Positions 2,293 to 17,951 are shown, counted from the stretch's first letter. The stretch is DNA of 64,000 bases from Candidatus Gottesmanbacteria bacterium GW2011_GWA2_43_14 (GCA_000999095.1 LCFP01000006.1:1823-65822), one strand, 5' to 3'. The notes: a model not told the origin generated them from the sequence alone. Numbers and translations are program-made.

Positions 2293-2922
2293 ATGGCAGC
2301 AAAATTTGTTGATCTTACTTTGACTTTGGACAATAAAACACCGGTTTTTCCCGGTGATCCGCCGGTTATCGTGGAGCCAATCGCCTCGCTGGAAAAAGAC
2401 GGTTGTTCGATCCACAGCTTCAGTTTTCCCGGACACTGTTCGACCCATCTGGATGCACCGGCCCATTTTATTGCCGGTGGCCTGAAAATCGATCAAATAC
2501 CAATGGAATGGCTGGTCGGGGAGGGAATCAAGATCAGTCAGCCCGAAAATACAAAGGTTATTGAACTGTCTGGGGATCTATTCAAAAGCAAGCCGAAAAT
2601 TGTTTTGATTCAGACAAACTATATCAATACTATTCAAAGTAAATCATACTTTACCGACCACCCGTTGCTTTCCGAAAAATCGGCCAAAATTCTGATTGCG
2701 GCCGGAGTGAAAATGGTCGGCATGGACTGGCCGAGTCCTGATAAAGAGCCGTTTAATATCCATAAGATTCTCCTTGCGAAAAACGTTTTGATCCTGGAAA
2801 ACGTCTGCAATCTCGATCTTTTGCCCGCATCAGGCTTCCGCGTCCATGTCCTGCCGTTGAAAAGCCCGACGGACGGTGCCCCGGCAAGAGTAATCGCGGA
2901 AATCATGGGGGAATCACTATGA
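2293..2922 (+). CDS. cyclase-family protein (kynurenine formamidase-like)
   Basis: Carries the FPGHCSTHLDAPAHF metal-binding signature of the putative cyclase/arylformamidase family. ATGA overlap with the next gene. Confidence 0.55.
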   Translation: MAAKFVDLTLTLDNKTPVFPGDPPVIVEPIASLEKDGCSIHSFSFPGHCSTHLDAPAHFIAGGLKIDQIPMEWLVGEGIKISQPENTKVIELSGDLFKSKPKIVLIQTNYINTIQSKSYFTDHPLLSEKSAKILIAAGVKMVGMDWPSPDKEPFNIHKILLAKNVLILENVCNLDLLPASGFRVHVLPLKSPTDGAPARVIAEIMGESL

Positions 2923-5618
2923 AATTTACAATCGATCCGAAGATTTTTGAGAAATATCCCGGGGTGGAGATAGGGGTAATCGTTATCAAAGGCATGGACA
3001 ATTCCGGCCGGGATGAAGGGATATTAAAGCTGTTGCGGATGGAGGAAGCCAACCAGAAAAAGCTGCTGGCAGAGACGGAATTGGGTTCATTGGCGGAAAT
3101 AGCTGCCTGGAGGGAGATTTACCGTTCATTCGGCTCCCACCCCAAAGACGACCGCTCTTCTATTGAAGCTCTTTTGAGGCGGGCAAGAGCCGGGAATAAG
3201 GAAATCCCGCATATCAACAAGCTGGTAGACCTTTATAATTATCTTTCCCTCAAACACCATTTGCCGGCCGGGGCTGAAGATCTAGATAAAATCAAAGGCG
3301 ACATCAGGCTGACTTTTGCTGACGGGTCTGAGGAAGGTAAGACCATCGGATCCGAACAGCCGGAAAAATGCGATGCCGGCGAGGTCTTTTACAGAGACGA
3401 TGAAAGCTTTATCTGCCGCAAGTGGAACTGGCGTGAAGCCGACAGGACCAAGATCGGCAAGGACAGCGGTAATGCGGTTCTGGTTATCGAAAAAGCTCCG
3501 CCTGTTTTCCGGGAAAAGTTAGAGGAGGCTTTGGCGGAAACAGAAGGACTTATAAAAAAGCACCTCAAGGCGGAAACGGAAATTTCCGTTTTGTCAGGGG
3601 ATATACAATCGATGAATCTTGTTTTCATCCCGTCTAAAAAAGAGGCGGTAAAACGGATGAAAGTTCCGCCGGTAAAAATCACCAACCCTCTACTTTCACA
3701 AGCGGAATCTTTCACAGCAGAAATAGTTAAGAACGTACTTTTTTCGGCTGTCAAAAAACTCTATCCTGAAAGCGAGATTAATTACTATGATATAAAACTA
3801 GAACATCCTTCTAATGAAAACTATGGGGACTACTCATCTAATATAGCCATGATTATGGCTTCTAAAATTAAAATCAAGCCTATTAAACTGGCTGAAAACA
3901 TTAGTAGGGAGCTAAATGACTATATAGGAAGAGGTCAATCGATATCATATATATCTCATAGTAAAGAATCTAAAGAGGTTGAATTCATTGTTTCAGATAT
4001 CCTGGAGAATTCAAATGGAGTGGTACCAGGCTTTATCAACCTGAAGCTGGCCGAAAAATTCCTTATCAGTCAAATGGGTGAAGTGCCAGATTCTAAAAAG
4101 AGCGTGAAAACGGTCAAAACAGACCCATTCTCTTACAAATTTCTTACGGGAAAAAAGTTGATTTTTGAATTTACCGACCCCAATCCTTTTAAGGAGTTTC
4201 ATATCGGGCACTTATACAGTAATGCCGTCGGCGAGACGATTGCCAGGACAAGCGAGGAGCTCGGAGCGGATGTCAGACGGGCCAATTATTTCGGGGATGT
4301 CGGGATGCATGTGGCAAAATCGATCTGGGGAATGAAGAAGCTGGACAAAAAAATGGAAGATAAATCCCTGGGGGAAAAAGTCAAATATTTGGGTGAAGCT
4401 TATGCTTTGGGGGCGACCGCTTACGGGGAGGACGATAAAGCCAAAGAAGAAATGACCAGAATAAATTTCCTGGTTTTTATTGCCGCCCAGGAGTATATGC
4501 AGAAGAAGATGAAGTGGATACCTCAGATTGATTACCGCCAGTTTATCCGGCCGGATGAAAAAGAGACAGAGGAAGTCGCCGCTTTGTTTGAAAAAGGCCG
4601 TGAATGGAGTCTGGCCTATTTTGAAAGCATTTATGAGCGGTTGGGAACAAAATTCGACTACTATTATCCGGAATCGATTGTCGGTGAATACGGCATGCAG
4701 ACAGTAAAGGATGCCCTGGAGAAGGGTATATTCGAAAAAAGCGACGGGGCAGTAGTTTTCCATGGTGAAAAATACGGACTGCATACCAGGGTTTTTGTTA
4801 ACGCTTTAGGCCTGCCGACTTATGAGGCCAAAGAACTGGGTTTGGCCCCGACAAAATATAAGGATTTTCAATATGATTTTTCGATGATCATAACGGCCAA
4901 GGAAATCAACGAATACTTCCAGGTGCTTCTCAAAGTACTTTCGTTTCTAAAGCCGGAATTGGCTGCCAAAACCCGGCATCTGGGCCACGGCATAGTCAGA
5001 CTGCCGGAAGGCAAAATGAGCTCGAGGACAGGCAAGATAGTCACCGGGGAAAAGCTTTTGGAGATGGTGAAGGCAAAGCTAAAAGAGCGACTGGATACAA
5101 CCAAATCAGACCAGTACACAAAAGAAGAATCCGAGCTCATTTTGGAGAAAACTGCGGTGGCCGCCGTCAAATACTCCATGCTGAAAGTCGCTCTGCCGGC
5201 AGACCTGGTTTTTGATTTGGAAAAATCGGTTAATTTCGACGGTGACAGCGGGCCATATCTCCAGTATACCTATGCCAGATGCCGGAGCGTTTTGAGAAAA
5301 GCTGAAGAATCAGGCGTCAAAAGAGCATCGGAAGCTCCGGTTGATTTGAATAAGGAAGAGAAGAATCTGCTGAGAACATTCTATAAATTCGAAGAAGCGG
5401 TTTTGGAAGCAGGCAAAAATTTCTCACCGTCAACAATTGCCGGCTACCTTTATGATTTGGCCCAGAAATACAATCTTTTTTACAGTAAACACTCAATACT
5501 CGGCAAGGGGAAGGCCCTACCGGCCACACAATTCCGCATAGCTTTGACACAAACTACTTCAGAAATAGTTAAAAAAGGTCTATGGCTGTTGGGGATTGAG
5601 ACAGTTGAGAAAATGTGA
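2919..5618 (+). CDS. argS: arginine--tRNA ligase with an N-terminal B3/4-like (COG3382-type) domain extension
   Basis: Residues ~250-899 contain the Arg_tRNA_synt_N-like segment (NYGDYSSNIAMIMASKI), HIGH (FHIGHLYSNAVGE), KMSSRTGK and the DALR anticodon-binding motif (GPYLQYTYARCRSVL). Residues 1-240 start MKFTIDPKIFEKYPGVEIGVIV, like stand-alone B3/4 tRNA-binding proteins. Confidence 0.8.
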   Translation: MKFTIDPKIFEKYPGVEIGVIVIKGMDNSGRDEGILKLLRMEEANQKKLLAETELGSLAEIAAWREIYRSFGSHPKDDRSSIEALLRRARAGNKEIPHINKLVDLYNYLSLKHHLPAGAEDLDKIKGDIRLTFADGSEEGKTIGSEQPEKCDAGEVFYRDDESFICRKWNWREADRTKIGKDSGNAVLVIEKAPPVFREKLEEALAETEGLIKKHLKAETEISVLSGDIQSMNLVFIPSKKEAVKRMKVPPVKITNPLLSQAESFTAEIVKNVLFSAVKKLYPESEINYYDIKLEHPSNENYGDYSSNIAMIMASKIKIKPIKLAENISRELNDYIGRGQSISYISHSKESKEVEFIVSDILENSNGVVPGFINLKLAEKFLISQMGEVPDSKKSVKTVKTDPFSYKFLTGKKLIFEFTDPNPFKEFHIGHLYSNAVGETIARTSEELGADVRRANYFGDVGMHVAKSIWGMKKLDKKMEDKSLGEKVKYLGEAYALGATAYGEDDKAKEEMTRINFLVFIAAQEYMQKKMKWIPQIDYRQFIRPDEKETEEVAALFEKGREWSLAYFESIYERLGTKFDYYYPESIVGEYGMQTVKDALEKGIFEKSDGAVVFHGEKYGLHTRVFVNALGLPTYEAKELGLAPTKYKDFQYDFSMIITAKEINEYFQVLLKVLSFLKPELAAKTRHLGHGIVRLPEGKMSSRTGKIVTGEKLLEMVKAKLKERLDTTKSDQYTKEESELILEKTAVAAVKYSMLKVALPADLVFDLEKSVNFDGDSGPYLQYTYARCRSVLRKAEESGVKRASEAPVDLNKEEKNLLRTFYKFEEAVLEAGKNFSPSTIAGYLYDLAQKYNLFYSKHSILGKGKALPATQFRIALTQTTSEIVKKGLWLLGIETVEKM

Positions 5619-5638: not shown

Positions 5639-6433
5639 ATGAGAAAGTATCTGCCCGTCCTAATATTTTTCATAAATCTACTGCTTCTGGGAAAAATCCA
5701 GGTGGTGGCACAGACACCTCCCAAAACAATCAAGCTGGGCACTTTTTCGCCTCCGCCTACCAGGACGCCTACCAGGACACCGACCAAAACCCCGACCAGG
5801 ACACCTACTTCGGTTGTGCCAACTATTACCGGCCAAATTCCGACTTCCTCTGCCACAGATTCTCCTGAACCCACCAATTCGGATGACGGAGGAGGGAATA
5901 ACGGCGGCGATCCTGCTGACTGCGCCAAAATCGGATTATCGATGTATGTGCCTCAGCCGCGTTTTCTTGAAAGTACGACCCTTTGTGAGCAGGGTACGAT
6001 CTGGCCACCTTACCTGCCTTCGTTTGTGCCTAGCAATCTGACCAATCTTGACAATGCCCTGGGCGGCCAGTTCTGGGTCCGTACGAACAGCATAAAGATA
6101 AAAAGCGGCATCACCGGCAACCTGGCATCTTTTTTGGAATATATGGAGAAGCAGCCGGGCTGTACGGTTTTTGTCGGCTACGGCTACCGTTCTTATGCCG
6201 AGCAGGAAGGTTTGTGGTACGGAAACGATTGCCCGACCAATCCGGGTTGCGGAGTGGCTCCCCCCGGCAAAAGCAGCCACCAGGCGGGAATTGCACTGGA
6301 CCTTTTTTGCGCTGAAATGATAGGATCTGATATAAACTTAAAAGTAGTACCGGCGGCGGCCATTACCAATGCCAAGAATTTTGATTTTATCCATCCCGTT
6401 TCCTGGGATACGCCGCATTTCATAGGATTATAA
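5639..6433 (+). CDS. secreted peptidase M15 (VanY/D-Ala-D-Ala carboxypeptidase-like) with a Pro/Thr linker
   Basis: Signal peptide, TPTRTPTRTPTKTPTRTPT linker, and a C-terminal YAEQEGLW...SSHQAGIALDL motif of the SxHxxGxAxD type found in M15 peptidases. Confidence 0.55.
   Translation: MRKYLPVLIFFINLLLLGKIQVVAQTPPKTIKLGTFSPPPTRTPTRTPTKTPTRTPTSVVPTITGQIPTSSATDSPEPTNSDDGGGNNGGDPADCAKIGLSMYVPQPRFLESTTLCEQGTIWPPYLPSFVPSNLTNLDNALGGQFWVRTNSIKIKSGITGNLASFLEYMEKQPGCTVFVGYGYRSYAEQEGLWYGNDCPTNPGCGVAPPGKSSHQAGIALDLFCAEMIGSDINLKVVPAAAITNAKNFDFIHPVSWDTPHFIGL
5755..5812. repeat. low-complexity Pro/Thr linker-coding repeat
   Basis: Repeated acc/ccg/acg codons encoding (TPTR/K)n. Confidence 0.6.
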
Positions 6434-6434
6434 A

Positions 6435-6755
6435 ATGAGAGAAATAAAAATATATACTTTGTTAGCTATTTTTGCAGTAGTTATGCTTTTGATAGTGTTT
6501 GGTGTTATATTCCTGTCCGGCACAGGTAAAGATGCAGAAAGAATAGAGGAGGCTGAAACTGAAAATGAATTTGTACCGCCACAGGATTTCGAGTACGACG
6601 AGAATTTAATTGAAGATTTTAATAACGCTCCCGTCAAAGTTGAATATGATTACACCCTCTCAAGCGGTGAAAAGATTACCATCCGCATCCCCGAAGGAGT
6701 CGATCCGCCTCCTCAGGCCGCAGTCGAGAAGATGTACAGGGAGAGGAAGGAGTAA
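6435..6755 (+). CDS. small membrane-anchored hypothetical protein
   Basis: The ORF starts 2 nt after the M15 peptidase stop. It has an N-terminal TM helix and an acidic tail. No recognisable domain. Confidence 0.35.
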   Translation: MREIKIYTLLAIFAVVMLLIVFGVIFLSGTGKDAERIEEAETENEFVPPQDFEYDENLIEDFNNAPVKVEYDYTLSSGEKITIRIPEGVDPPPQAAVEKMYRERKE

Positions 6756-6820: not shown

Positions 6821-7840
6821 ATGAGAGATTTTATTGCCCGGATTTTGATAAGCCGGATTGGCATCATTTTTTTATTGTTTATTCTGGTTCTCAGCCTGTT
6901 TGCCGGATACAGTGTTCTTTCCCGTCAAAAAGCACCGCAGCCTGAATATGTCTGCGGAGGCAAAAACTGTTTTGCCGGCTGCTGCGTCCGCGGCAAATGC
7001 CAGCAAAAAGGCATCAATATTGCCGGTTATACTTGTTTTGGTGAGAATAAGTGGGAAACGCCCGACAAAAAAGGTATTGCCTCCGGCACGCCCTATGCGG
7101 TCATAGATGCGGTCACGGGAAAAAGTTCTGTCCCTGATCCGGATGACCCGGCGACAGTGGTAGCCACAGTAGGGCAGGAGAGAATTTTCCAGAAAGACCT
7201 CGACAGCGAAATCTCGCTTTACCCGCCTCAATACAGTCCTGATATCAGAAAAATCCTGATCGATAAGATCAGTGAAGATTCGACACTTCTGCAGAAGGCA
7301 GCCAAAGAAGGAGATGTGGTTTTGGATGAGACTGTTTTTGATACGGTTGACAAGGATTACAGCAAACGGCTGGAGCTGGTCAAAGAAGTAAAAGGGATTT
7401 TTGATTCCCGCCAGAACAGTCTATCGGGCACAATCATCTCCATCTGGTTTTACAATGAGAAGATAGGGCCTTTGGGTTACGAGAAAGGCAAGCAGTTGGC
7501 CTTCCAGAAAATCGATGCCCTCCAGCGGAATGTCAAAAACGGCAATTTAACTTTGGAAGAAGCTGTTGATATCATAAAAAATGACAGGGAGCTGGAACAG
7601 ATTGACAAATCATACAAATCCAACGCTTCATTCCGTTTCGATGTCAGGGAAGGCCAAAAGATCAGCCTTGATCCCGGTTTTGACAGCCAGTTGTGGCAAC
7701 TGTCCGACGGGGATGTTTCCGATGTTTTTCTGGCCAAGGATATACCCGAGTATGATGCGCCGGCGGTTGATGCAGTCTATATGTTTGCCAGGATCGACCG
7801 TAGGCAAATTGCGGAAACCGTAAAGGAGCAGAATTTATGA
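6821..7840 (+). CDS. cassette copy A1: membrane-anchored protein with N-terminal Cys-rich motif and SurA/PrsA-N-like region
   Basis: TM helix, then CGGKNCFAGCCVRGKCQQKGINIAGYTCFGENKWETP, which is shared with ORF 8939. The downstream segment KILIDKISEDSTLLQKAAKEG resembles the SurA N-terminal chaperone domain (weak match). Confidence 0.45.
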   Translation: MRDFIARILISRIGIIFLLFILVLSLFAGYSVLSRQKAPQPEYVCGGKNCFAGCCVRGKCQQKGINIAGYTCFGENKWETPDKKGIASGTPYAVIDAVTGKSSVPDPDDPATVVATVGQERIFQKDLDSEISLYPPQYSPDIRKILIDKISEDSTLLQKAAKEGDVVLDETVFDTVDKDYSKRLELVKEVKGIFDSRQNSLSGTIISIWFYNEKIGPLGYEKGKQLAFQKIDALQRNVKNGNLTLEEAVDIIKNDRELEQIDKSYKSNASFRFDVREGQKISLDPGFDSQLWQLSDGDVSDVFLAKDIPEYDAPAVDAVYMFARIDRRQIAETVKEQNL

Positions 7841-8898
7841 AAAAAATAATCTTAACAGCAATCTTTTTGGGTGTGTTTTTCATCCCGCAAAAAGCCGAAG
7901 CCTATGCTCCGCCGGTCTTCGGCTACGTCAAAACCAAAACTGGCGCCCCGATTGCCGGAATAGCCATCAAATGGCAGGATGCGGAAAATAATTCCTGGTT
8001 CGTCTTTACCGATAATACGGGATATTTCCGCTACCCGGTTTATAACCTGATCAGTAAAAGTATCCGGAAGGATATGTATAACCACATGATTGATACAGAT
8101 ATGGACAGTCTTTCCGACAGCCGGGAAAACAGTATTTTGCCGGGAGACGACGAAGATAAAACCTATGGAGGATTCGGCTGCAGCACCAATCCGCATAAAA
8201 TCACAGCTGTCATGCCCAAAAGCTGGAAAGGAGCTTTTTCCGTACCACCACCGTTTGAGATGGCTCCCGGAGACGAACTCAACAATTCCATGGCTGAGGC
8301 TAAAGTGGTCGATATAATTTACGATCCTAACGCCATGCCTCCTGTTTCGGTTACTCCGACAGGAGTAAAGCCGCCTGTTTCGGTTACTCCTGCTTCCTCA
8401 TGCAACTGTGAAAGCATGACCGTCACCAATAATTTGAGAGTCGGGGAGTTGATTACGATAAGCACCAAAGCAAATACTCCAGTACCGGATTTAGCCGAAG
8501 TCAGGGAAATGGTTTATCACGTCGAGAAAAACGGAGTGGAAATCCTCAAGTCTTTGCCTTTGAAAGCTGAGGAAATTACCGGTTCATACGGCCGCTATCA
8601 AACATCCTGGAAATACCGGATTCCGACAGGAGCAGAATCACCTGGAGAATACCATGTCCATGCCGACATAATTTGTGCCAAAAAGACGGCTGACAACATA
8701 GATAGCGATAGCCGGCAAAGTCTTTGGTCGGGGATATTGGGTATGTTTTTTCAGCCGAACCCCATCTCTGCCCAGGATTGGACATCCGATGTGACCGTAG
8801 TTGCGCCTTCCGGCGTCAATTCGCTTCAGCTGGGGACTTTTCATCCGGTCGTAAACCTGAAATTGGGCTGTAAAGACATGTATTTTACCATCAGATAA
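7837..8898 (+). CDS. cassette copy B1: secreted protein with a conserved C-terminal domain shared with ORF 10212
   Basis: Signal peptide and ATGA overlap with A1. The C-terminal ~130 aa (MVYHVEKNGVEI...GRYQTSW...LQLGTFHPVVNLKLGCKDMYFTI) is paralogous to the C-terminus of ORF 10212. Confidence 0.5.
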   Translation: MKKIILTAIFLGVFFIPQKAEAYAPPVFGYVKTKTGAPIAGIAIKWQDAENNSWFVFTDNTGYFRYPVYNLISKSIRKDMYNHMIDTDMDSLSDSRENSILPGDDEDKTYGGFGCSTNPHKITAVMPKSWKGAFSVPPPFEMAPGDELNNSMAEAKVVDIIYDPNAMPPVSVTPTGVKPPVSVTPASSCNCESMTVTNNLRVGELITISTKANTPVPDLAEVREMVYHVEKNGVEILKSLPLKAEEITGSYGRYQTSWKYRIPTGAESPGEYHVHADIICAKKTADNIDSDSRQSLWSGILGMFFQPNPISAQDWTSDVTVVAPSGVNSLQLGTFHPVVNLKLGCKDMYFTIR

Positions 8899-8938
8899 GT
8901 ATTGACTGGGAAGCGAATAATTCATAAGCTGAAAATAG

Positions 8939-10201
8939 ATGAAACAGAAGCTTGTTGTTATTGCTTCGGTAGTTCTCCTAATTCTGCTGTCTGCCGCAGT
9001 CTTTTATAAATCGAAAAAACCTGTCGAGAGCATGCTTTGCGGAGCAGTTTCCTGTGAAAACGGCTGCTGCGTCAAAGGAAAATGCATTCCTAAAGGACTT
9101 GAAATAGCCGGTTATACCTGCCGTGAAAATAATACCTGGCAGACGCCTGAGGGTAAAATCGAAACAAAACTTCCGGAGGCTGTTTCCATTGCTGTCGGCC
9201 AGGCTCTCGAAGTTCCTGGTTTATTATCTTCTGAAAAAGCCCGTGAAATCGCCCAAAATATAGTCAGTTGGCTGGACGGCATGAAAAATGACAAGGGACA
9301 GTATTTTGCAAACGAAAACTGTGCTTCTGACGGCTTATGCCAGACTTCATCCACCATAGACAAACAAAGAGGAATTATCACAGTCTGGTCCAGATACCGC
9401 AATTATTTAGGCAGCCGAAATGCCCCCGAGATGGACTTGATTGATGCCGAACTGGCTACTTTGACTACTCCGGGAGTAGGCTCTCCGGCACAAAATGACT
9501 ATCTGAACTGTACTTTGATGTATGAACTCCATAAAAGCAATGTTTTTACACCTCAGCAAAAAAATAAAATTACTTCTATATGCAATGACAGTATATTCTA
9601 CGGGGAGGAGATGAATAACTACAACCAACGCTCCAAGTCCGATGAAGCATATTCAGCTGAACCTGCAGTCGAGCTTTTCCTGGAAGGCAAACCTGTAAAT
9701 ACAGGACTTAATGCAAATCCTGACAAGATGATTAAGTATTCATCGTATACGGCGGATATGGCCACTCTTTATATCTGGACCAAAGAAGCAAAAGCTTTGG
9801 AACTTGGCAAATATTTTTTCAATCTAGCCCTCGAGACGAAAAGCCAAGAACTTGAAAATACCGATGACTCTCTACTGGGCCTGGCTGCCTATAAGTTTTA
9901 TGAAGCAACCGGCGAGCAGAAATACCTGGAAGCATCCGGAAAGTTTATGGAAGAAAAATCAACCGGTTTAAAATGCTCAAATTTTGTCTATTGCGTCAAT
10001 TATTTGTATTTCCTCGACTATTATTCGGACAAAACAGATGATCCGGAGATCAAACTGAAGTCGGAAGAACTGTTTGCCATGCTGATGGCAAATTTTTATG
10101 ATTCCGGTAAAAATCTCTTTTATTATAAAAACGAAAACGGGATAAATTATTATCCGGTTGCTCAAAACAGCATCTTATCCGGAATTTTGGCAAATTATTA
10201 G
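8939..10201 (+). CDS. cassette copy A2: membrane-anchored protein with the same N-terminal Cys-rich motif
   Basis: TM helix plus CGAVSCENGCCVKGKCIPKGLEIAGYTCRENNTWQTP. The remainder of the protein is different (no match recognised). Confidence 0.45.
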   Translation: MKQKLVVIASVVLLILLSAAVFYKSKKPVESMLCGAVSCENGCCVKGKCIPKGLEIAGYTCRENNTWQTPEGKIETKLPEAVSIAVGQALEVPGLLSSEKAREIAQNIVSWLDGMKNDKGQYFANENCASDGLCQTSSTIDKQRGIITVWSRYRNYLGSRNAPEMDLIDAELATLTTPGVGSPAQNDYLNCTLMYELHKSNVFTPQQKNKITSICNDSIFYGEEMNNYNQRSKSDEAYSAEPAVELFLEGKPVNTGLNANPDKMIKYSSYTADMATLYIWTKEAKALELGKYFFNLALETKSQELENTDDSLLGLAAYKFYEATGEQKYLEASGKFMEEKSTGLKCSNFVYCVNYLYFLDYYSDKTDDPEIKLKSEELFAMLMANFYDSGKNLFYYKNENGINYYPVAQNSILSGILANY

Positions 10202-10211
10202 TCATTAATAG

Positions 10212-12545
10212 ATGAAATTTAAATTTATTCTCAGCCTTTTTTTTCTATTTCTCACTCTTTTTTCTGTTGTCAGTATTATTGACAATTCAACATATGCTGT
10301 AGGATATGGTTGTCCGGCCGGTTGGGGTTGCAGCGGATGCAGCAGCGGATGCACCGGGGAGGCTTGTACCCAAGCAAATTGCTGCTATGCTAATAATCCT
10401 AATAATCCTGACGGAACTAAAAAAACTCCTCCTCCAGCCTGTTTGTCATATTGTCAGGCTGAATGTTTCGGTTTGTGGGAAGATTCCTGCGGCCCGGGTA
10501 AAAAAATCACAGATGAAGAAACCTTTAACTGCGGAGCCTGCGACAATGACGTAACCTGTTACAAATGCGGGCCTGATGACGAGGATGAACCTGGAGGTCC
10601 TACCAGTCCGCCGCCTCCGCCTCCTTCCAATACCCCTGTCCCGCCGCCGCCGACTAAAACACCGACGCCTGCGTCTCCGACAAATACTCCTACCAAAACA
10701 CCGACACCGACAATAACTCCTATACCGCGACCGGGCCTTTGCGAAAGTGAAACCATAGAGAAGTCGACAGTGTTTCCCGGTGACGGCTTTATTTTAAGTT
10801 CTGAAGCGGCTGAGGATGTTCCCCAATTTTATTATGCGTTTTATAACCTGGATAACCTTTACGGACCCGGCAACCCCAAACCTTTCTGTGTCAAAAATGT
10901 GGGGGACAATACCACTCCGTCAAGCAATTGTCCTGCCGGATCATCCCATCTGATATATAAAGACCCCGATACTTCTCCCAGGAATGTCGGTGCAGTCACT
11001 TTGTTTTATGAAGGTGTTTTTGTGGAAGACTGGGCAAACATAAATAAGGTACCCAGTAAAGTATCCATAAATGCGTACTTTATAGACAGCGAAGGCAGAC
11101 TATCAGCTTCAGACCCGGATTGTGTCGTTACTTTAAATAAAGGGACAGGCCCTCCGCCGCCACCCGGAACGCCGCCATACGGAACGCCGCCACCCGGACC
11201 CGGAACCCCCGGTTATACTCCGCCCCCGGGACCAGGAACGCCTCCATACGGAACGCCTCCTCCAGGAGGACCTGCCTGTAACCAACCATGCAATCCCTAC
11301 CAGCCATTCGACTGTCCTGAGGATTGCCCGTCATGTCCTTTTGTCAATCCCAAATGTGTGCCCGATAAACTTCCTCCCGGAGGACCCCAGTGCGGCGAGC
11401 CCTGCAATCCCGACAAGCCCAATGAATGTCCTGACGATTGTCCTTTCTGTCCTGATGCCAATCCGATCTGTGTCAGCGATGATGACTTCCCACCGTCTCC
11501 CACACCCGGAGCGCCGGGATGCGGCGAGCCGTGTAATCCGGATGAGGCATTTGATTGTCCTGATGAATGTCCGTCCTGTCCGACGGACAATCCGATCTGT
11601 GTGCCTGACAAACCGCCGCTCGGCGGCCCTCAGTGCGGCGAGCCCTGCAATCCGGACCAGCCCAGCGACTGCCCGGATGATTGCCCGTTCTGCCCGGTTA
11701 CTAACCCGATTTGCGTAGAAGATGATGATATTGCTCCGACTCCAACAGGAGCTCCTTCCTGCGGAGAACCATGCAGTCCTGAAACGCCGTATGACTGTCC
11801 TGAGGATTGCCCGTCATGTCCTGAAGTCAATCCTGAATGCGTGCCTGCTGAATCGCCTCCCGGAGGACCTCAGTGCGGCGAGCCCTGCAATCCGGACCAG
11901 CCCAATGAATGCCCTGACGAATGTCCTTTCTGTCCTGATGCCAATCCCCAATGCGATACTGAAGAAGAACCGCGCGGACCGACACCGCCTGCAGCCTGTG
12001 ACTGCGACAGCGTAACTTATGCCGGCAATTTCATCAGCGGACAGACCGTCACCGTAACCACCTTTGCCGTTTCCTTATTCCCGGATACAACCGAAGTCCG
12101 GACCATGACTTACCATGTGGAAAAAGACGGTGTGGAAATAGGTCTTTCCGATCCGGTCCCGGCAGAGGAGATATCCGGCTCAAACGGCCGCTACCAGACA
12201 CAGTGGGATTTCATTGTACCTGAAGGAGAGGATGCCGCAGGCCATTACCGCATCTGGGTAAAAATCATCTGCGGACGGATCACAGCCTCTGTCCTGGGCA
12301 CTGAAACGCCCCAAAAAACAACGTTCCTGGACAACCTGGTCAATTTCCTGTCCAACATATTTTTCTTAAACAAAAGAAACAGTTTACAGCCTCTGGCTGT
12401 AGCAACACCTACAGGCATTCCCGATTTCGGCAAGAGCAAACCGACAGTCCTGGCCCCGACAGCCAAATCGCTGCAGCTGGGGACTTTCCATCCGGTAACC
12501 AACCTTAAAGTGGGATGCAAGGAAATCAGCTTCGATATCCTCTGA
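10212..12545 (+). CDS. cassette copy B2: large secreted Cys/Pro-rich repeat protein with the shared C-terminal domain
   Basis: Signal peptide, Cys-rich N-terminal region and a PT linker. About six CGEPCNPDxPxxCPDDCP(F/S)CPxxNPxCV modules. C-terminus MTYHVEKDGVEI...GRYQTQW...LQLGTFHPVTNLKVGCKEISFDI. Confidence 0.55.
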   Translation: MKFKFILSLFFLFLTLFSVVSIIDNSTYAVGYGCPAGWGCSGCSSGCTGEACTQANCCYANNPNNPDGTKKTPPPACLSYCQAECFGLWEDSCGPGKKITDEETFNCGACDNDVTCYKCGPDDEDEPGGPTSPPPPPPSNTPVPPPPTKTPTPASPTNTPTKTPTPTITPIPRPGLCESETIEKSTVFPGDGFILSSEAAEDVPQFYYAFYNLDNLYGPGNPKPFCVKNVGDNTTPSSNCPAGSSHLIYKDPDTSPRNVGAVTLFYEGVFVEDWANINKVPSKVSINAYFIDSEGRLSASDPDCVVTLNKGTGPPPPPGTPPYGTPPPGPGTPGYTPPPGPGTPPYGTPPPGGPACNQPCNPYQPFDCPEDCPSCPFVNPKCVPDKLPPGGPQCGEPCNPDKPNECPDDCPFCPDANPICVSDDDFPPSPTPGAPGCGEPCNPDEAFDCPDECPSCPTDNPICVPDKPPLGGPQCGEPCNPDQPSDCPDDCPFCPVTNPICVEDDDIAPTPTGAPSCGEPCSPETPYDCPEDCPSCPEVNPECVPAESPPGGPQCGEPCNPDQPNECPDECPFCPDANPQCDTEEEPRGPTPPAACDCDSVTYAGNFISGQTVTVTTFAVSLFPDTTEVRTMTYHVEKDGVEIGLSDPVPAEEISGSNGRYQTQWDFIVPEGEDAAGHYRIWVKIICGRITASVLGTETPQKTTFLDNLVNFLSNIFFLNKRNSLQPLAVATPTGIPDFGKSKPTVLAPTAKSLQLGTFHPVTNLKVGCKEISFDIL
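11275..11965. repeat. about three tandem copies of a ~240-nt coding repeat (Cys-rich module pairs)
   Basis: The nucleotide strings gagccctgcaatcc(c/g)ga(c/a)(c/a)agcccaatgaatg(t/c)cctgacga(t/a)tgtcctttctgtcctgatgccaatcc recur near 11398 and 11880. The stretch near 11640 is a related but more diverged copy (...agcccagcgactgcccggatgattgcccgttctgcccggttactaaccc). So the period is about 240 nt. Confidence 0.6.
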
Positions 12546-12557
12546 ATGAGTAGGATT

Positions 12558-13202
12558 TTATTCTACTTTTATGCGATCAAAAGGAACACCCGTTTTGGTA
12601 TTGTTGATACCCAGGAACATGCGAAGTCCGCCGAACCCGGCATTTTTATAGCCGCTGATCAGCCTTTTCGGATCGATAAACGGTGATAATGTAGCCCAGC
12701 CGGAGTCAGGCAATTGCATTACGAGATAATTCTCAATATCTGATATGGGAATTTTTATTCTCAGGAAATATAATTTCGACCCTTCGGGCATTTCAGGATG
12801 GTTAATTATATCGAGAAGTTTTCCTGAGTTGAGAGTCAAGGTATCTCTCTTGACCGGTTTTTGGGAATCTGAAATTAAGAAGGATTCCTGACCGTTCAGA
12901 TATCGGACATCGCCGTTTTTGATAATATATGCCTTGGGAAAATTCCCTAACCACATGACAGCTTTATCAGTGGCAGACCCGTTGGGTCCGATTATCATGC
13001 TTAAATCACGCTTTAGTCCTTCATGCACTATAATTCCATCTCCAGTCAGCCATATGCCGCCTCTCAGGTTACCCAAATCCAAATTATGGAAGTAAAGATC
13101 AGGATAAACAGCCCTCAGAATGGTTCGGCCATGGGTAACTCTGATCCCTAATTTTTCTGGACTTAAATGAGAGTCAGGAATATTCTGTTCCAGATTTTTC
13201 AT
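12558..13202 (-). CDS. hypothetical protein
   Basis: ATG at 13202 (MKNLEQ...). The longer track ORF would overlap the upstream holin-like gene. No recognisable motif. Confidence 0.4.
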   Translation of the reverse strand: MKNLEQNIPDSHLSPEKLGIRVTHGRTILRAVYPDLYFHNLDLGNLRGGIWLTGDGIIVHEGLKRDLSMIIGPNGSATDKAVMWLGNFPKAYIIKNGDVRYLNGQESFLISDSQKPVKRDTLTLNSGKLLDIINHPEMPEGSKLYFLRIKIPISDIENYLVMQLPDSGWATLSPFIDPKRLISGYKNAGFGGLRMFLGINNTKTGVPFDRIKVE

Positions 13203-13224
13203 AGGTATATGAAAATTCGCAGAA

Positions 13225-13560
13225 TTAACGGATAAGGATATTGAGCAGGGTTGAAATGACAGTGATGACAATTGAGGCCAGAATGGCTGTGCCGAAATTT
13301 TCAATCTGGAAACCGGAAACAAGTCTGGAAGCAATCAAAAGGAGTATGGCATTGATAACAAACATGAAAAGTCCAAGCGTAAGTATTGTGGCGGGCAAAG
13401 TGAGAATGATCAAAACAGGCTTAAGTATCAGATTAAGGAGGGCAAGAATAAGGGCTACAATAACAGCTGTCACATAATCCGTGATCTTGAAACCTGGTAC
13501 AACGGAGGCGGTCAGGAGGAGGACCAAGGCACGGATAAGCAGATCAACCAGAAATCTCAT
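13225..13560 (-). CDS. DUF360/phage-holin-4-like small membrane protein
   Basis: MRFLVDLLIRALVLLLTASVVPGF...ALLNLILKPVLIILTLPATILTLGLFMFVINAILL matches the four-TM holin family 4 (YvlD-like) pattern. Confidence 0.55.
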   Translation of the reverse strand: MRFLVDLLIRALVLLLTASVVPGFKITDYVTAVIVALILALLNLILKPVLIILTLPATILTLGLFMFVINAILLLIASRLVSGFQIENFGTAILASIVITVISTLLNILIR

Positions 13561-13625
13561 AATGAAATTATATCATTGACGAACCCGCGTTGCATAACCG
13601 TGATTCATATTTTAATATTTCTTGT

Positions 13626-15047
13626 ATGACAGCTACCAATATTAAGTCTCTTTTACTGCTTTTATTGATTATTTTTATGGGAGTTGTGTTAAGGTTTTAC
13701 CGGATAAATACTCTGGCCACCTTCAGGAGCGACCAGGCGATTGAACTGAATGGAGCCTATGAGATATCCCGGGGCAAGTTTTCCCTGATAGGGATAAAGA
13801 CTTCGAATTCCGAGATTCGCAACGGTGCGGTCATGTATTATTTGACTGTCCCTTTTCTCCTTTTGTTTGAAAACCATCCGCTGGCCGGCAGTGTTTTGCA
13901 GACAATGCTTTCATTGGCTACTGCAGCCGTGCTCTATTTACTCCTGGGTAAGGAGAATAAAAGAACTGCTTTGACCGCGGCCTTTCTGGTTGCTGCCTCT
14001 GCCCTCCTGGTCCGTTTTTCCCGGCAAACCATGCTGGCTTTCTATCCATTGTTTTTCTCAGGCTTTGCTTTATGGCTTTTTTCCAAACTGAATGAAAAAT
14101 TCGACAAAAAATCAGTCTTTGCTCTGGGGTTAATCCTGGGGTTCATGCTGCAAATCCATTACAGTACTTTTACGGTGGTTTTATCAGCTTTGCTTTTTCC
14201 CTTTCTGTTTTTACGAAAATATCTGAAAAACTATTTCCTGCTGATAGTACCGGGTTTTCTCATTGGTTTTTTGCCGATGCTGGTTTTTGAGTTGCGGCAT
14301 GAATTTTTCAACACCAAAATGTTATGGGCTTTCGTATCGTCTTCAAGTTCTGCTCCAATGGCTTCTTTCAATCACTTTGTTTACTGGCAAAAAGTCGTGG
14401 CCGGCTTCTTTTTCGGGGAAAATTTTGTTTTTGCAGGAATATTCATCATATGTCTGCTTCTTTGGCTGACCCGGCGAAGATCTGCTTTAAAACAGATTGA
14501 AAAGATATCACTTCTTGCTATTGCTTCAAATGTCCTTTTCGGTTTGGTATTTGTCAAAACATATACGCCTCATTACGCAGTAGCAGCGGTGCCCGCTTTG
14601 GTAGCCATGACGGCCATATTTATCACCGGGGTTGCCGGACGCCTTGCACCTCTGTTACTGGCAATCTTTTTTTTAATAAATTTTCCCGGTTACGGTTTTT
14701 CCGACAATCACGGCTGGACCATGGCTGACGGCTGGAACCAGTCCGGTATTGAAAAAGCTGCTGACACAATTTATGAAGACGCCCTAAACGGGCAATTCAA
14801 TGTAGCCATGTTGGTAGATGCGGAAAATCAGGGATGGCCGCTCCGATATTTTCTTAAAATCCGCGGGAAAGAACCGCAGGCTGCCGATAAATACGACCGG
14901 GCGGAAACCCTTTACCTGGTTTCTGAGCCGGGGATCGACCTGGATAATATTAAGATGTGGGAATTAACTTCGTTTGGAGCCTATACGATCGGCAATCAAT
15001 GGGAGATCCAAAACGGCTATGTCCTATATAAACTGCAGAAAATTTAA
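13626..15047 (+). CDS. polytopic membrane protein, putative GT-C (ArnT/PMT-like) glycosyltransferase
   Basis: About 11 predicted TM helices. Loose ArnT/GT39-like architecture, no diagnostic motif. ATG at 13626 is preferred over the TTG at 13590. Confidence 0.4.
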   Translation: MTATNIKSLLLLLLIIFMGVVLRFYRINTLATFRSDQAIELNGAYEISRGKFSLIGIKTSNSEIRNGAVMYYLTVPFLLLFENHPLAGSVLQTMLSLATAAVLYLLLGKENKRTALTAAFLVAASALLVRFSRQTMLAFYPLFFSGFALWLFSKLNEKFDKKSVFALGLILGFMLQIHYSTFTVVLSALLFPFLFLRKYLKNYFLLIVPGFLIGFLPMLVFELRHEFFNTKMLWAFVSSSSSAPMASFNHFVYWQKVVAGFFFGENFVFAGIFIICLLLWLTRRRSALKQIEKISLLAIASNVLFGLVFVKTYTPHYAVAAVPALVAMTAIFITGVAGRLAPLLLAIFFLINFPGYGFSDNHGWTMADGWNQSGIEKAADTIYEDALNGQFNVAMLVDAENQGWPLRYFLKIRGKEPQAADKYDRAETLYLVSEPGIDLDNIKMWELTSFGAYTIGNQWEIQNGYVLYKLQKI

Positions 15048-16778: not shown

Positions 16779-17951
16779 ATGGATAATTTAAAAAAAGCTT
16801 TACTGATCTTCTTAACCGTTAATTTATGCCTCTATTTATTTATGTGGCAATTTCACTGGCTGGTGCCGTTTAATCAAAATTTATACATCAACAGTTCACA
16901 TCATTATCTGACTGACGAGCGGATCCTGTCGGGAAATTATAATTTTTTGAGAGCTTTGGGACAATATGACGCCCAATGGTATTTGAAGATTGCCGACAAT
17001 GGTTATCCGCCGAACCCCCAGACTGTTGAAATGGAGAATAAGACTGTGATGGACGGCTTGACGTATGCGTTTTTCCCTCTTTACCCTCTATTGATCTCCA
17101 TTCTCAATATGGGCATCAATAACGTTGAGCTGGCTGCTTTTATCCTGGGGCAGATCCTGGCTACGGCTGCGTTTTGCAGCCTTTATTTTGTCGTCAGCCG
17201 GATCTACGGTGAAAAAATTGCCTTTCGGACATCCCTCCTGCTATTTCTTTTTCCCTTCAGTATCTTTTTCCGCAGCTATTATACGGAGAGCCTTTTTTTG
17301 ATGATTTTAGTCTGGTACGGATATTTTCTGGTCAAAAAACAATGGTGGGGAGTGGCGGTGGCAAATGCCCTCATGATGGTGACCCGGCCGACCGGATTGT
17401 TTCTGGTGCCTGTAACAACCGTATTTCTTATTGCCGACTGTCTGAAGAATAAAACCAAGCTGAAGGAGATGATAATAGTTCCTCTGATTACCGGATTGCC
17501 ATTTATCAGCTGGATGATATTTAATTTCAAATCAACCGGTGATCCCTTTTATTGGAAAAACGTCCAAAGTTCGTGGTATTTGACTTCATCTCCTTTGGTT
17601 ATCATCAAAGTTAATTTATATCTTCTGAAAAACTTTTTCGCCCTGCCATTCCACAGTTTTCATACATCAAGGGTTGATATTTTGGCAGTTATGTACGTAG
17701 GATTTATATTGATCGCCGGATTCCGGTTTCTAAAAAGGGAGTGGTGGCTGATGTCCCTTATGATGTGGCTGCCTCTTTTAATTCTCAAAGATACGATGTC
17801 TTTTTCCCGCTACCAGTCAGTCTCTTTTCCGTTGTTTGTCTATCTGGCCGGGAATATGAACAATAAATGGTTTACGGCCGTTTCTGTCATCCTCGGAGCC
17901 TTACTTTTCGCAACTTCACTCTATTTCATCAACTGGCACTGGATCGGCTAG
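16779..17951 (+). CDS. integral membrane protein (possible GT-C-fold mannosyltransferase-like)
   Basis: At least 10 TM helices. No diagnostic motif recognised. Confidence 0.35.
   Translation: MDNLKKALLIFLTVNLCLYLFMWQFHWLVPFNQNLYINSSHHYLTDERILSGNYNFLRALGQYDAQWYLKIADNGYPPNPQTVEMENKTVMDGLTYAFFPLYPLLISILNMGINNVELAAFILGQILATAAFCSLYFVVSRIYGEKIAFRTSLLLFLFPFSIFFRSYYTESLFLMILVWYGYFLVKKQWWGVAVANALMMVTRPTGLFLVPVTTVFLIADCLKNKTKLKEMIIVPLITGLPFISWMIFNFKSTGDPFYWKNVQSSWYLTSSPLVIIKVNLYLLKNFFALPFHSFHTSRVDILAVMYVGFILIAGFRFLKREWWLMSLMMWLPLLILKDTMSFSRYQSVSFPLFVYLAGNMNNKWFTAVSVILGALLFATSLYFINWHWIG

Follow-up and report, generated by a model that had tools for sequence, protein, structure and literature searches.

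Several described systems resemble parts of the locus reported here. TraA of Myxococcus is a polymorphic surface receptor with a variable head, Cys-rich repeats, a conserved C-terminal end and chimeric alleles (PMC3820747, PMC6372800). IdsD and IdsE of Proteus are an allele-restricted binding pair of type VI secretion; their binding was shown experimentally, and their variable parts are membrane-spanning subdomains (PMC4471559). In fungi, membrane-anchored GH76 enzymes (Dfg5/Dcw1) cross-link glycoproteins into the wall (PMC3372484, PMC7902864). The locus studied here lies in a stretch of 64,000 nt from Candidatus Gottesmanbacteria bacterium GW2011_GWA2_43_14, an uncultivated inhabitant of groundwater (GCA_000999095.1 LCFP01000006.1:1823-65822), hereafter the window, and consists of four genes on the + strand in the order A1-B1-A2-B2. 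In our proposal the locus belongs to the cell envelope, is confined to Gottesmanbacteria, a lineage of the Candidate Phyla Radiation (CPR), and comprises two conserved pairs, each an A followed by a B, in which each A acts on, or holds, its own B. We regard this proposal as about evenly balanced between right and wrong; the descriptive picture of pairs, modules, topology and block exchange is held with high confidence. The four open reading frames (ORFs) are as follows.

6821-7840, + strand, A1, ORF of 339 aa
7837-8898, + strand, B1, ORF of 353 aa
8939-10201, + strand, A2, ORF of 420 aa
10212-12545, + strand, B2, ORF of 777 aa

The sequence-only reading that preceded this analysis had placed the four genes at exactly these coordinates, as the ORF calls confirm, and had described the junctions correctly: the stop of A1 and the start of B1 overlap in ATGA, and A2 and B2 are separated by 10 nt.

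Like TraA, B2 starts with a signal peptide and a hypervariable head, continues with Cys-rich tandem repeats, closes with a conserved C-terminus and has a partner gene, and its chimeric alleles likewise suggest recombination. However, B2 has no sequence homology to TraA and no PA14 domain, and it ends in an Ig-like domain instead of the MYXO-CTERM tripartite tag; moreover, the organism is monoderm-like, and the partner gene is upstream and itself variable. As with IdsD and IdsE, A2 and B2 are adjacent genes whose strain-variable regions go together, which is known here from co-replacement in six genomes. A1 resembles PrsA and SurA, being by prediction membrane-anchored and extracytoplasmic, with a putative helical SurA-N-like domain followed by a modelled beta-alpha3-beta-alpha-beta2 domain. 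PrsA has a lipid anchor, whereas A1 has a transmembrane (TM) helix and an extra 6-Cys module; unlike PrsA, A1 is encoded as a dedicated partner, its gene overlapping a single secreted-protein gene, and it has no Pfam rotamase match and scores below the curated thresholds. A2 shares with the GH76 enzymes a predicted membrane-anchored, outward-facing placement and adjoins a Pro/Thr-rich secreted protein, with PMT_2 genes nearby; its matches to such enzymes reach E-values of no better than 1e-4 to 1e-2, the catalytic Asp-Asp pair of GH76 was not found in it, and its alleles diverge to ~33% identity. The locus is also reminiscent of cohesin-dockerin systems, with small constant modules on variable bodies and Pro/Thr linkers, and the B-domain genes of two related loci (L040 and L041 in our numbering) stand beside genuine cohesin/dockerin proteins; however, the window proteins have no cohesin or dockerin match, and the Cys module is disulfide-rich, not EF-hand-like. 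None of these systems is the family of the present proteins, as no defining sequence feature of any of them is found above curated thresholds. What the locus encodes is surface proteins with dedicated partners, assembled from two modules that are undescribed and lineage-restricted, and our search of the literature on Gottesmanbacteria or CPR with Cys-rich or PrsA found no description of it.

The gene-pair rule and the two shared modules

All fetched loci were annotated with hidden Markov models (HMMs) for four modules, which gave 18 non-redundant B-domain genes with a known upstream region. In sixteen of these the gene immediately upstream, on the same strand, is of the A type (an N-terminal anchor joined to an extracytoplasmic body), with gaps of at most 45 nt or overlaps of 4-8 nt, and the pairing persists down to ~30% identity. 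The A-B-A-B order recurs in the much more divergent L024, L026 and L039; single A-B pairs are found in L025, L036 and L041. The idea that the homologs are never adjacent elsewhere is thus clearly contradicted, and the tight coupling noted for the window, with overlapping or nearly abutting frames, holds.

A1 and A2 are similar in their N-termini only, where 36 of 84 residues are identical (43%, E=8e-18); the remainder shows no similarity. The shared region comprises a TM helix and the motif C-x4-C-x3-CC-x4-C-x11-C...W.TP, so that pairwise alignment upholds the earlier description of a common anchor and Cys motif followed by divergent sequence.

~6857-6919, + strand, TM core of A1 (hydropathy)
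6953-7063, + strand, 6-Cys knottin-like module of A1 (A1/A2 alignment)
8951-9007, + strand, TM helix of A2 (hydropathy)
9038-9148, + strand, 6-Cys module of A2 (A1/A2 alignment)

In the A proteins the Cys module begins ~10 residues past the TM helix. By hydropathy only, A1 has a lone N-terminal hydrophobic segment (residues 3-36), with basic residues before it and the disulfide-type Cys module after it; A1 and A2 are accordingly predicted to be N-in signal-anchor proteins with extracytoplasmic bodies. The Cys spacing is invariant in 15 of 16 aligned modules and lies within the classical consensus of the inhibitor cystine knot (ICK, or knottin). Knottins are free peptides, whereas the A module is the juxtamembrane part of a large protein. 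In the AlphaFold2 (AF2) model the predicted local distance difference test (pLDDT) score over the A1 module is 42-52, and the disulfide connectivity is not readable from it. A hevein/CBM18 identity was also considered and dropped, since it has no Pfam support and the model is too poor to examine.

An exhaustive search of 1.84 billion representative proteins with the Cys-module HMM returned 14 matches, 13 of them genuine; the other, P0014, was set aside as spurious, being a 1005-aa Sushi-repeat protein from an animal. In all 13 the module sits at about residues 30-115, directly past the N-terminal anchor, and it is carried on at least four body types: PrsA-like, short parvulin-like, six-hairpin and Reg_prop beta-propeller. 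Among 15 complete A genes, 10 have it. Neither this module nor the C-terminal domain of the B proteins corresponds to a family in Pfam or NCBIfam, and all named sources of both are Gottesmanbacteria.

The B proteins mirror this arrangement at the other end, their similarity being confined to the C-termini (81 of 191 residues identical, 42%, E=1e-40). The shared C-terminal domain noticed at the outset is therefore real, though its length is ~175-190 aa (residues 180-353 of B1 and 587-777 of B2) and not ~130. The parts of the two proteins are listed here.

7837-7902, + strand, B1 signal peptide (signal-peptide-like N-terminus)
~7900-8331, + strand, B1 CarboxypepD_reg-like beta-sandwich head (Pfam CarboxypepD_reg, E=1e-3)
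8374-8895, + strand, B1 shared C-terminal Ig-like domain (B1/B2 alignment, AF2 fold)
8824-8841, + strand, B1 LQLGTF motif (motif scan)
10212-10298, + strand, B2 signal peptide (signal-peptide-like N-terminus)
10299-10568, + strand, B2 hypervariable Cys-rich head, ~90 aa (strain comparison)
~10728-11147, + strand, B2 middle beta-rich domain
11277-11954, + strand, B2 array of six 27-aa Cys repeats (243-nt tandem repeat; CGEPCNPDxPxxCPxxCPxCPxxNPxC)
11970-12542, + strand, B2 shared C-terminal Ig-like domain (B1/B2 alignment, AF2 fold)
12471-12488, + strand, B2 LQLGTF motif (motif scan)

In B2, a Pro/Thr stalk precedes the middle domain and a Pro/Gly linker follows it; the whole protein contains 59 Cys and 18% Pro. 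As had been suggested, both Bs look like secreted modular surface proteins, secretion being predicted from their signal-peptide-like N-termini. AF2 models the C-terminal domain as an Ig-like seven-stranded sandwich (pLDDT 82-97 over residues 11-110), followed by a low-confidence linker of ~50 residues and a terminal strand. Foldseek matches it with probability 1.0 to the Wzt CBD, RhoGDI, TRAP subunits and CBM21 (E 4e-4 to 7e-3), and we are confident, on the strength of this model, that it is an Ig-like/E-set sandwich similar to generic E-set and carbohydrate-binding sandwiches. The domain is rare: four clusters among 5.8 billion in a word-indexed search, two of 185,579 species genomes (both Gottesmanbacteria) and 14 metagenome loci. 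Across loci it is borne by many different heads. No sorting signal of the LPXTG, PEP-CTERM or MYXO-CTERM type and no C-terminal hydrophobic segment was found in B1 or B2; the C-terminus is a beta-strand of the Ig-like domain.

Just ahead of this last strand lies LQLGTF, which is invariant in every family member, even at ~30% overall identity; its placement in the AF2 model is of low confidence. The pattern [LIV][QKR][LY]G[TS]F has three matches in the window against 0.09 expected, namely in B1, in B2 and in a VanY gene upstream. The latter carries TIKLGTF (5729-5746), right past the signal peptide and ahead of a Pro/Thr linker, and its orthologs in L013 and L023 retain the motif as SIKLGSF. 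A shared recognition or strand-donation element is one possibility.

Three further observations concern B2. A phospholipase A2 match on its head (E=0.004) is noise from Cys composition, as the His-Asp catalytic motif is absent. The GC content rises to 0.51, with negative GC skew, at 10001-12000, against 0.44-0.46 elsewhere in the window; the rise falls on the Pro/Gly/Cys-rich repeats, stems from their composition and is no sign of foreign DNA. Finally, public calls of B2-type genes begin at an internal Met, and an antisense ORF is called over the Pro/Cys-rich repeats, as at L001 2393-4555 (called as 4115-4555 plus antisense 3244-4044) and L024 6785-8152; the window has antisense ORFs of the same kind, for example at 11297-11611 on the minus strand. 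Such calls truncate the genes, and therefore these proteins are under-represented and mis-sized in databases and under-counted in surveys.

Conserved pairs and a strain-variable block

The relatives clarify how the two pairs are related. In L023 (Gottesmanbacteria RIFCSPLOWO2_01_FULL_42_22) the order is ArgS, VanY, a 104-aa TM protein, a two-gene insert, A1, B1, a HepT/MNT module on the other strand, A2 and B2, with holin-family, MgtE and CorA genes later. A hypothetical protein of Candidatus Gottesmanbacteria GW2011_GWA2 matches A1 at 100% identity. Ortholog identities to the window are 68-72% for A1, 60-62% for B1, 32-33% for A2 and 75% for B2 over its C-terminal half. The HepT/MNT (nucleotidyltransferase-type) toxin-antitoxin pair stands on the opposite strand between B1 and A2 in L010 (3915-4753), L013 (6179-7017) and L023 (7161-7999), and the pairs of the window look tandem because this module is absent there; they are also directly tandem in L024 (Gottesmanbacteria RBG_13_37_7), L026 and L039. 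The B domains of close relatives cluster by ortholog (B1 66-67%, B2 83%, B1 versus B2 46%). The only DNA-level similarity between the pairs is a stretch of 63 nt (79%) at the 3' ends of B1 and B2, which implies an old resemblance, preserved in the proteins; a recent gene-conversion event linking the two pairs was rejected for the same reason. By these comparisons, both pairs of the window are conserved orthologous pairs and not the product of a recent tandem duplication.

The two B domains of L024 are 69% identical to each other and only 29-37% to those of the window, its two Cys modules are mutual best matches (54%), and the Cys module of A2 in the window is nearer to that of A1 (52%) than to those of its own orthologs (39-43%). 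These alignments are suggestive of lineage-specific duplication or exchange of modules within the locus; the modules are short.

A different kind of exchange affects A2 and B2. Between conserved flanks, a block of ~1.3-1.7 kb is replaced as a unit among strains, and its equivalent in the window is this:

9029-10586, + strand, strain-variable block: A2 Cys module and body, B2 signal peptide and head

P0011, the A2 of L020, is 86-100% identical to the L023-type A2 over its first ~85 residues; past that point it is 23-52% identical to the L023 type and 50-80% to the type of the window and P0010. At the DNA level, L020 and L023 are 91.5% identical up to about codon 80 of A2, then have no detectable similarity for ~1.3 kb up to about codon 125 of B2, and are 85% identical thereafter. 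L010 and L023 show the same pattern with breakpoints at about codon 31 of A2 and codon 119 of B2; here the Cys module lies inside the replaced block, present in L010 and absent from L023. The identities of A2 body and B2 head co-vary (Pearson r=0.93, six genomes, 15 non-independent pairs). These two parts group the window with L020 and L018; the B2 middle domain groups L010, L023 and L020 at 80-85%. A1 and B1 evolve congruently with the flanks. As judged from the alignments, the variable unit crosses the gene boundary and comprises the predicted outward-facing part of A2 together with the signal peptide and head of B2. The pattern of constant ends and swapped bodies, which had been proposed for the window, thus holds at two levels: modules are carried on varied bodies and heads, and strains replace a block between conserved flanks.

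The second line of evidence for a link between A bodies and B heads comes from L014 (4618-7546; also L015-L017), where an A1-like protein, 47% identical over the body and lacking the Cys module, is followed by a 655-aa CarboxypepD_reg/SdrD_B protein. The latter has only the head in common with B1 (E=1e-14; its own matches are CarboxypepD_reg at 2e-13 and SdrD_B at 6e-12) and no B C-terminal domain. As this pair has neither shared module, the pairing of PrsA-like body and B1-type head is older than the modules. Together with the co-replacement of A2 body and B2 head, it points to A body and B head as the parts that are matched in function, with the shared modules looking like additions of a generic kind.

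Proposed mechanism and alternatives

The bodies that could act on the B heads are of two kinds.

7157-7837, + strand, A1 PrsA/SurA-like body: helical N-domain and parvulin-like beta-alpha3-beta-alpha-beta2 domain
9221-10198, + strand, A2 six-hairpin (alpha/alpha)6 glycosidase-like body (11-sequence family profile against PDB)

Single-sequence searches of all four proteins against PDB and NCBIfam gave nothing usable. A1 matches Pfam SurA_N_3 at E=0.077 (13 bits, below the curated cut-off of 27), and its family profile matches LIC12922 at E=0.074, a structural homolog of SurA (PMC11358297). The AF2 model of A1 (mean pLDDT 62, body 60-88) has a helical domain followed by beta-alpha3-beta-alpha-beta2 elements at residues 200-324, an order that fits the parvulin topology. 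The best Foldseek match is PrsA of S. pneumoniae (5tvl, E=8e-4, though with a TM-score of ~0.2), and other top matches are a PrsA-type PPIase of E. faecium (9ibn), SurA (9hga) and PrsA of B. cereus (6vj6); no Pfam rotamase family matches A1 at E<=1. Three concordant signals, each weak, thus suggest a PrsA/SurA-like body, and the "cognate chaperone" that the sequence-only reading had offered is a fair guess for the A1-B1 pair.

For A2, the top 17 PDB matches of the 11-sequence profile are all six-hairpin glycosidases, including GH9 endoglucanase 1ks8 (E=1.3e-4), GH76 alpha-1,6-mannanases (~2e-3), the six-hairpin protein 6ex6 (5e-3) and GH127. Family members individually match Pfam GH127_cat, GH88 and GH76, with GH127_cat touched by five of the 11, below the cut-off. 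The family conserves acidic residues at positions 171, 187, 196, 273 and 326 (E171, D187, E196, D273 and E326) and an aromatic set; no adjacent conserved Asp-Asp pair of the GH76 catalytic type is seen in its alignment. A LanC-like identity was rejected, as LanCL1 matches only at E=1.4 against 1e-4 for glycosidases. The body of A2 is most likely a six-hairpin (alpha/alpha)6 domain, which may or may not be catalytic. Overall, we grade the fold assignments as weak to moderate.

We propose the following mechanism. A and B would be made together from overlapping or near-abutting frames by translational coupling. Each A would be held in the membrane by its N-terminal signal-anchor, with the body facing outward and the 6-Cys knottin-like module beside the membrane. 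Each B would be exported by its signal peptide and would present a variable head, Pro/Thr-rich stalks and the C-terminal Ig-like domain with its invariant LQLGTF...GC segment. At the outer face of the membrane, each A may then act on, or hold, the head of its own B: A1 may fold B1, and A2 may bind or process glycan and might in this way build B2 into the wall, much as fungal wall glycoproteins are incorporated by membrane-anchored GH76 enzymes. The shared module of A may serve for positioning at the membrane, and that of B may attach its base to a common envelope component. We infer the export topology, the physical or enzymatic relation of A and B, the surface display and the glycosylation. 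The wall-incorporation model for A2, an entirely inferred analogy, would fit the PMT_2 genes nearby and the Pro/Thr linkers.

Several points weigh against this mechanism. A2 body and B2 head could be replaced together simply by lying in one recombination tract, and not because they interact, and the co-variation comes from six genomes in non-independent pairs. The B-domain genes of L035 and L040, a divergent subgroup among subtilisin and cohesin/dockerin surface-protein genes, have no A upstream. The fold evidence for A1 is weak in each of its parts (model confidence, TM-scores, the missing rotamase family and matches all below the curated cut-offs), and no known glycoside hydrolase (GH) catalytic motif was identified in A2. 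In addition, promoter and terminator scans gave counts at background level and were uninformative; therefore, the operon structure is deduced from spacing alone.

Other explanations have to be weighed against the same data. If there were no specific relation between A and B, the B domain would be a self-sufficient cell-wall- or S-layer-binding domain, and the As would be independent envelope enzymes or chaperones that merely share the operon. The resemblance of the domain to carbohydrate-binding sandwiches (Wzt CBD, CBM21) agrees with this, as do the B domains without an A in L035 and L040 and the location of the L040 and L041 genes among cohesin, dockerin and CARDB surface-protein genes. We nevertheless think it unlikely, since adjacency in 16 of 18 cases, with frames that overlap or abut in loci that have diverged widely, would be hard to account for if the genes were not functionally coupled, and A2 body and B2 head are swapped together in a single block. 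It is also conceivable, and in our judgement decidedly unlikely, that the 6-Cys module of A is a specific receptor for the C-terminal domain of B in the manner of cohesin and dockerin, tethering B via A and leaving the bodies as interchangeable cargo. Both modules are indeed found in one narrow lineage only and at shared loci, no complete locus of the window type is without an A that carries the Cys module, the L024 modules are closest to each other (Cys 54%, B domains 69%, against 29-43% to other genomes), and the A2 module of the window is closer to that of A1 than to those of its orthologs, as given above. However, the two A-B pairs of L039 have B domains and no Cys module in either A, the A2 genes of L023 and L020 and one A of L026 also lack the module beside Bs that keep their domain, and no A accompanies the domain in L035 and L040. 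The pairing of A motif and B domain implied by the sequence-only reading is thus not obligatory, and strict one-to-one docking is unlikely. A more far-reaching version of our own proposal, to which we give little credence, is that A2 body and B2 head bind each other as cognate, allele-specific partners and constitute a polymorphic determinant of surface recognition or attachment, with the shared modules and LQLGTF as a new docking system. Such a determinant might serve kin, host or partner discrimination by an episymbiotic CPR bacterium, diversified by block exchange between strains, and LQLGTF, found also at the N-terminus of mature VanY, might act as a donor strand that plugs into the Ig-like domain, assembling several secreted proteins on the surface.

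The window was originally read as a tandemly duplicated cassette for the diversification of surface proteins or effectors, in which A1-B1 and A2-B2 would be diverged copies of one ancestral pair. The order of the shared ends is indeed common to both pairs, L024, L026 and L039 also have A-B-A-B, and the homologous six-hairpin bodies of the L026 As (33%), together with the 69% identity of the L024 B domains, indicate that pair duplication has happened in some lineages. In the literal sense, however, the claim does not hold for the window. The A bodies (PrsA-like versus six-hairpin) and B heads are unrelated, the homology does not run along whole gene copies but is limited to 84 aa of A and ~190 aa of B, no DNA repeat beyond the 63 nt exists, each pair has its own orthologs (60-87% identity) with HepT/MNT between the pairs in the closest relatives, and a distant A1/B1-type pair exists without the shared modules. 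We therefore hold duplication for diversification to be quite improbable here, and no effector or toxin domains were found in Pfam or NCBIfam. The last alternative, a polymorphic toxin-immunity or bacteriocin locus (with a CdiA-CT/CdiI-like block, or with A2 as a LanC-like toroid that modifies a Cys-rich B2), would account for a variable block that extends from the 3' part of one gene into the 5' part of the following gene, and could appeal to the very weak LanCL1 matches of the A2 family (E=1.4) and to HepT/MNT next door in relatives. It is largely refuted and hardly credible: searches of Pfam, NCBIfam and PDB revealed no family of toxins, immunity proteins or lanthipeptides, the alleles are homologous and of the same fold instead of being unrelated toxins, glycosidases match 10,000-fold better than LanC, both products are extracytoplasmic by predicted topology, and no viral relatives were found.

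Neighbourhood and significance

The locus is embedded in a same-strand cluster opened by the VanY gene. The neighbouring genes are as follows.

5639-6433, + strand, secreted VanY/M15-type peptidase with a Pro/Thr-rich linker (PF02557 VanY, E=5e-8)
6435-6755, + strand, 106-aa single-TM protein with no assigned function (ORF; hydrophobic residues 1-34)
12558-13334, minus strand, ORF of 258 aa without family match, convergent with B2
13225-13560, downstream of B2, Phage_holin_4_2 protein of the holin family (Pfam, E=1e-31)

A secreted M15 peptidase and a holin-like gene had been described as flanking the four genes. They do lie on either side, but neither is immediately adjacent: the 106-aa TM gene lies between VanY and A1, and the minus-strand ORF lies between B2 and the holin-family gene. 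The TM gene starts 1 nt past the VanY stop, is kept 5' of A1 in relatives and is 67% identical to its ortholog in L013; an ortholog is also present in L023 (104 aa). The minus-strand ORF has a TTG start and overlaps the holin-family gene by 110 nt; a start at an internal Met (MKNLEQ...) would abolish the overlap. No further copies of the A or B shared module were found in the 64-kb window by six-frame phmmer. A phage or prophage origin was rejected, as 2.9 million viral contigs yielded nothing related to the B domain and the locus is chromosomal and syntenic (ArgS ... MgtE, CorA, M16).

Just downstream of the locus, two genes for PMT_2 membrane proteins (GT-C, dolichyl-phosphate-mannose protein mannosyltransferase-like; 13590-15047 and 16779-17951, E ~9e-8 each) bracket the MgtE and CorA genes. 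These proteins could glycosylate the Pro/Thr-rich linkers of VanY, B1 and B2. Upstream, ArgS (2919-5618, 899 aa) has an N-terminal B3/4 domain (PF03483, E=3e-23) ahead of the normal ArgRS domains, an unusual fusion.

The surroundings differ in other genomes. In L013 (1718-4101) and L023 (2700-5083), a 682-aa Ala/Glu-rich protein and a 102-aa protein are encoded between the small TM gene and A1; they are absent from the window and have no family match. In L024, L025 and L026 the A/B genes are bordered by a UvrD-type helicase on one side and a DsbD_TM protein on the other (L024 9214-10332, L025 9993-11096, L026 11111-12391), with FemAB genes beyond and a CxxC thioredoxin-like part fused or adjacent to DsbD_TM. 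Such a neighbour fits disulfide formation in the Cys-rich products; DsbD, FemAB and UvrD neighbours of this kind were not found in the window. Proteins with cohesin/dockerin domains (Pfam E 1e-11 to 1e-12) adjoin the B-domain genes at L040 1356-4364 and 5591-6955 and at L041 3230-7814, together with an S8 peptidase with dockerin and CARDB proteins; in these CPR-like genomes the neighbourhood is one of surface assembly.

A life attached to other cells is assumed for CPR bacteria, but next to nothing is known of the molecules involved; for this role, Cys-rich extracellular proteins are so far no more than suggested candidates (PMC4736985). The locus described here is a candidate cell-surface recognition or attachment system. 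It offers two lineage-restricted modules without a family and a strict gene-pair rule, in which a membrane-anchored partner is followed by a surface protein, and its strain-exchanged block across a gene boundary is a pattern of the kind seen in bacterial recognition loci. If A body and B head are truly a cognate pair, surface recognition in an uncultivated phylum would become testable with recombinant proteins.

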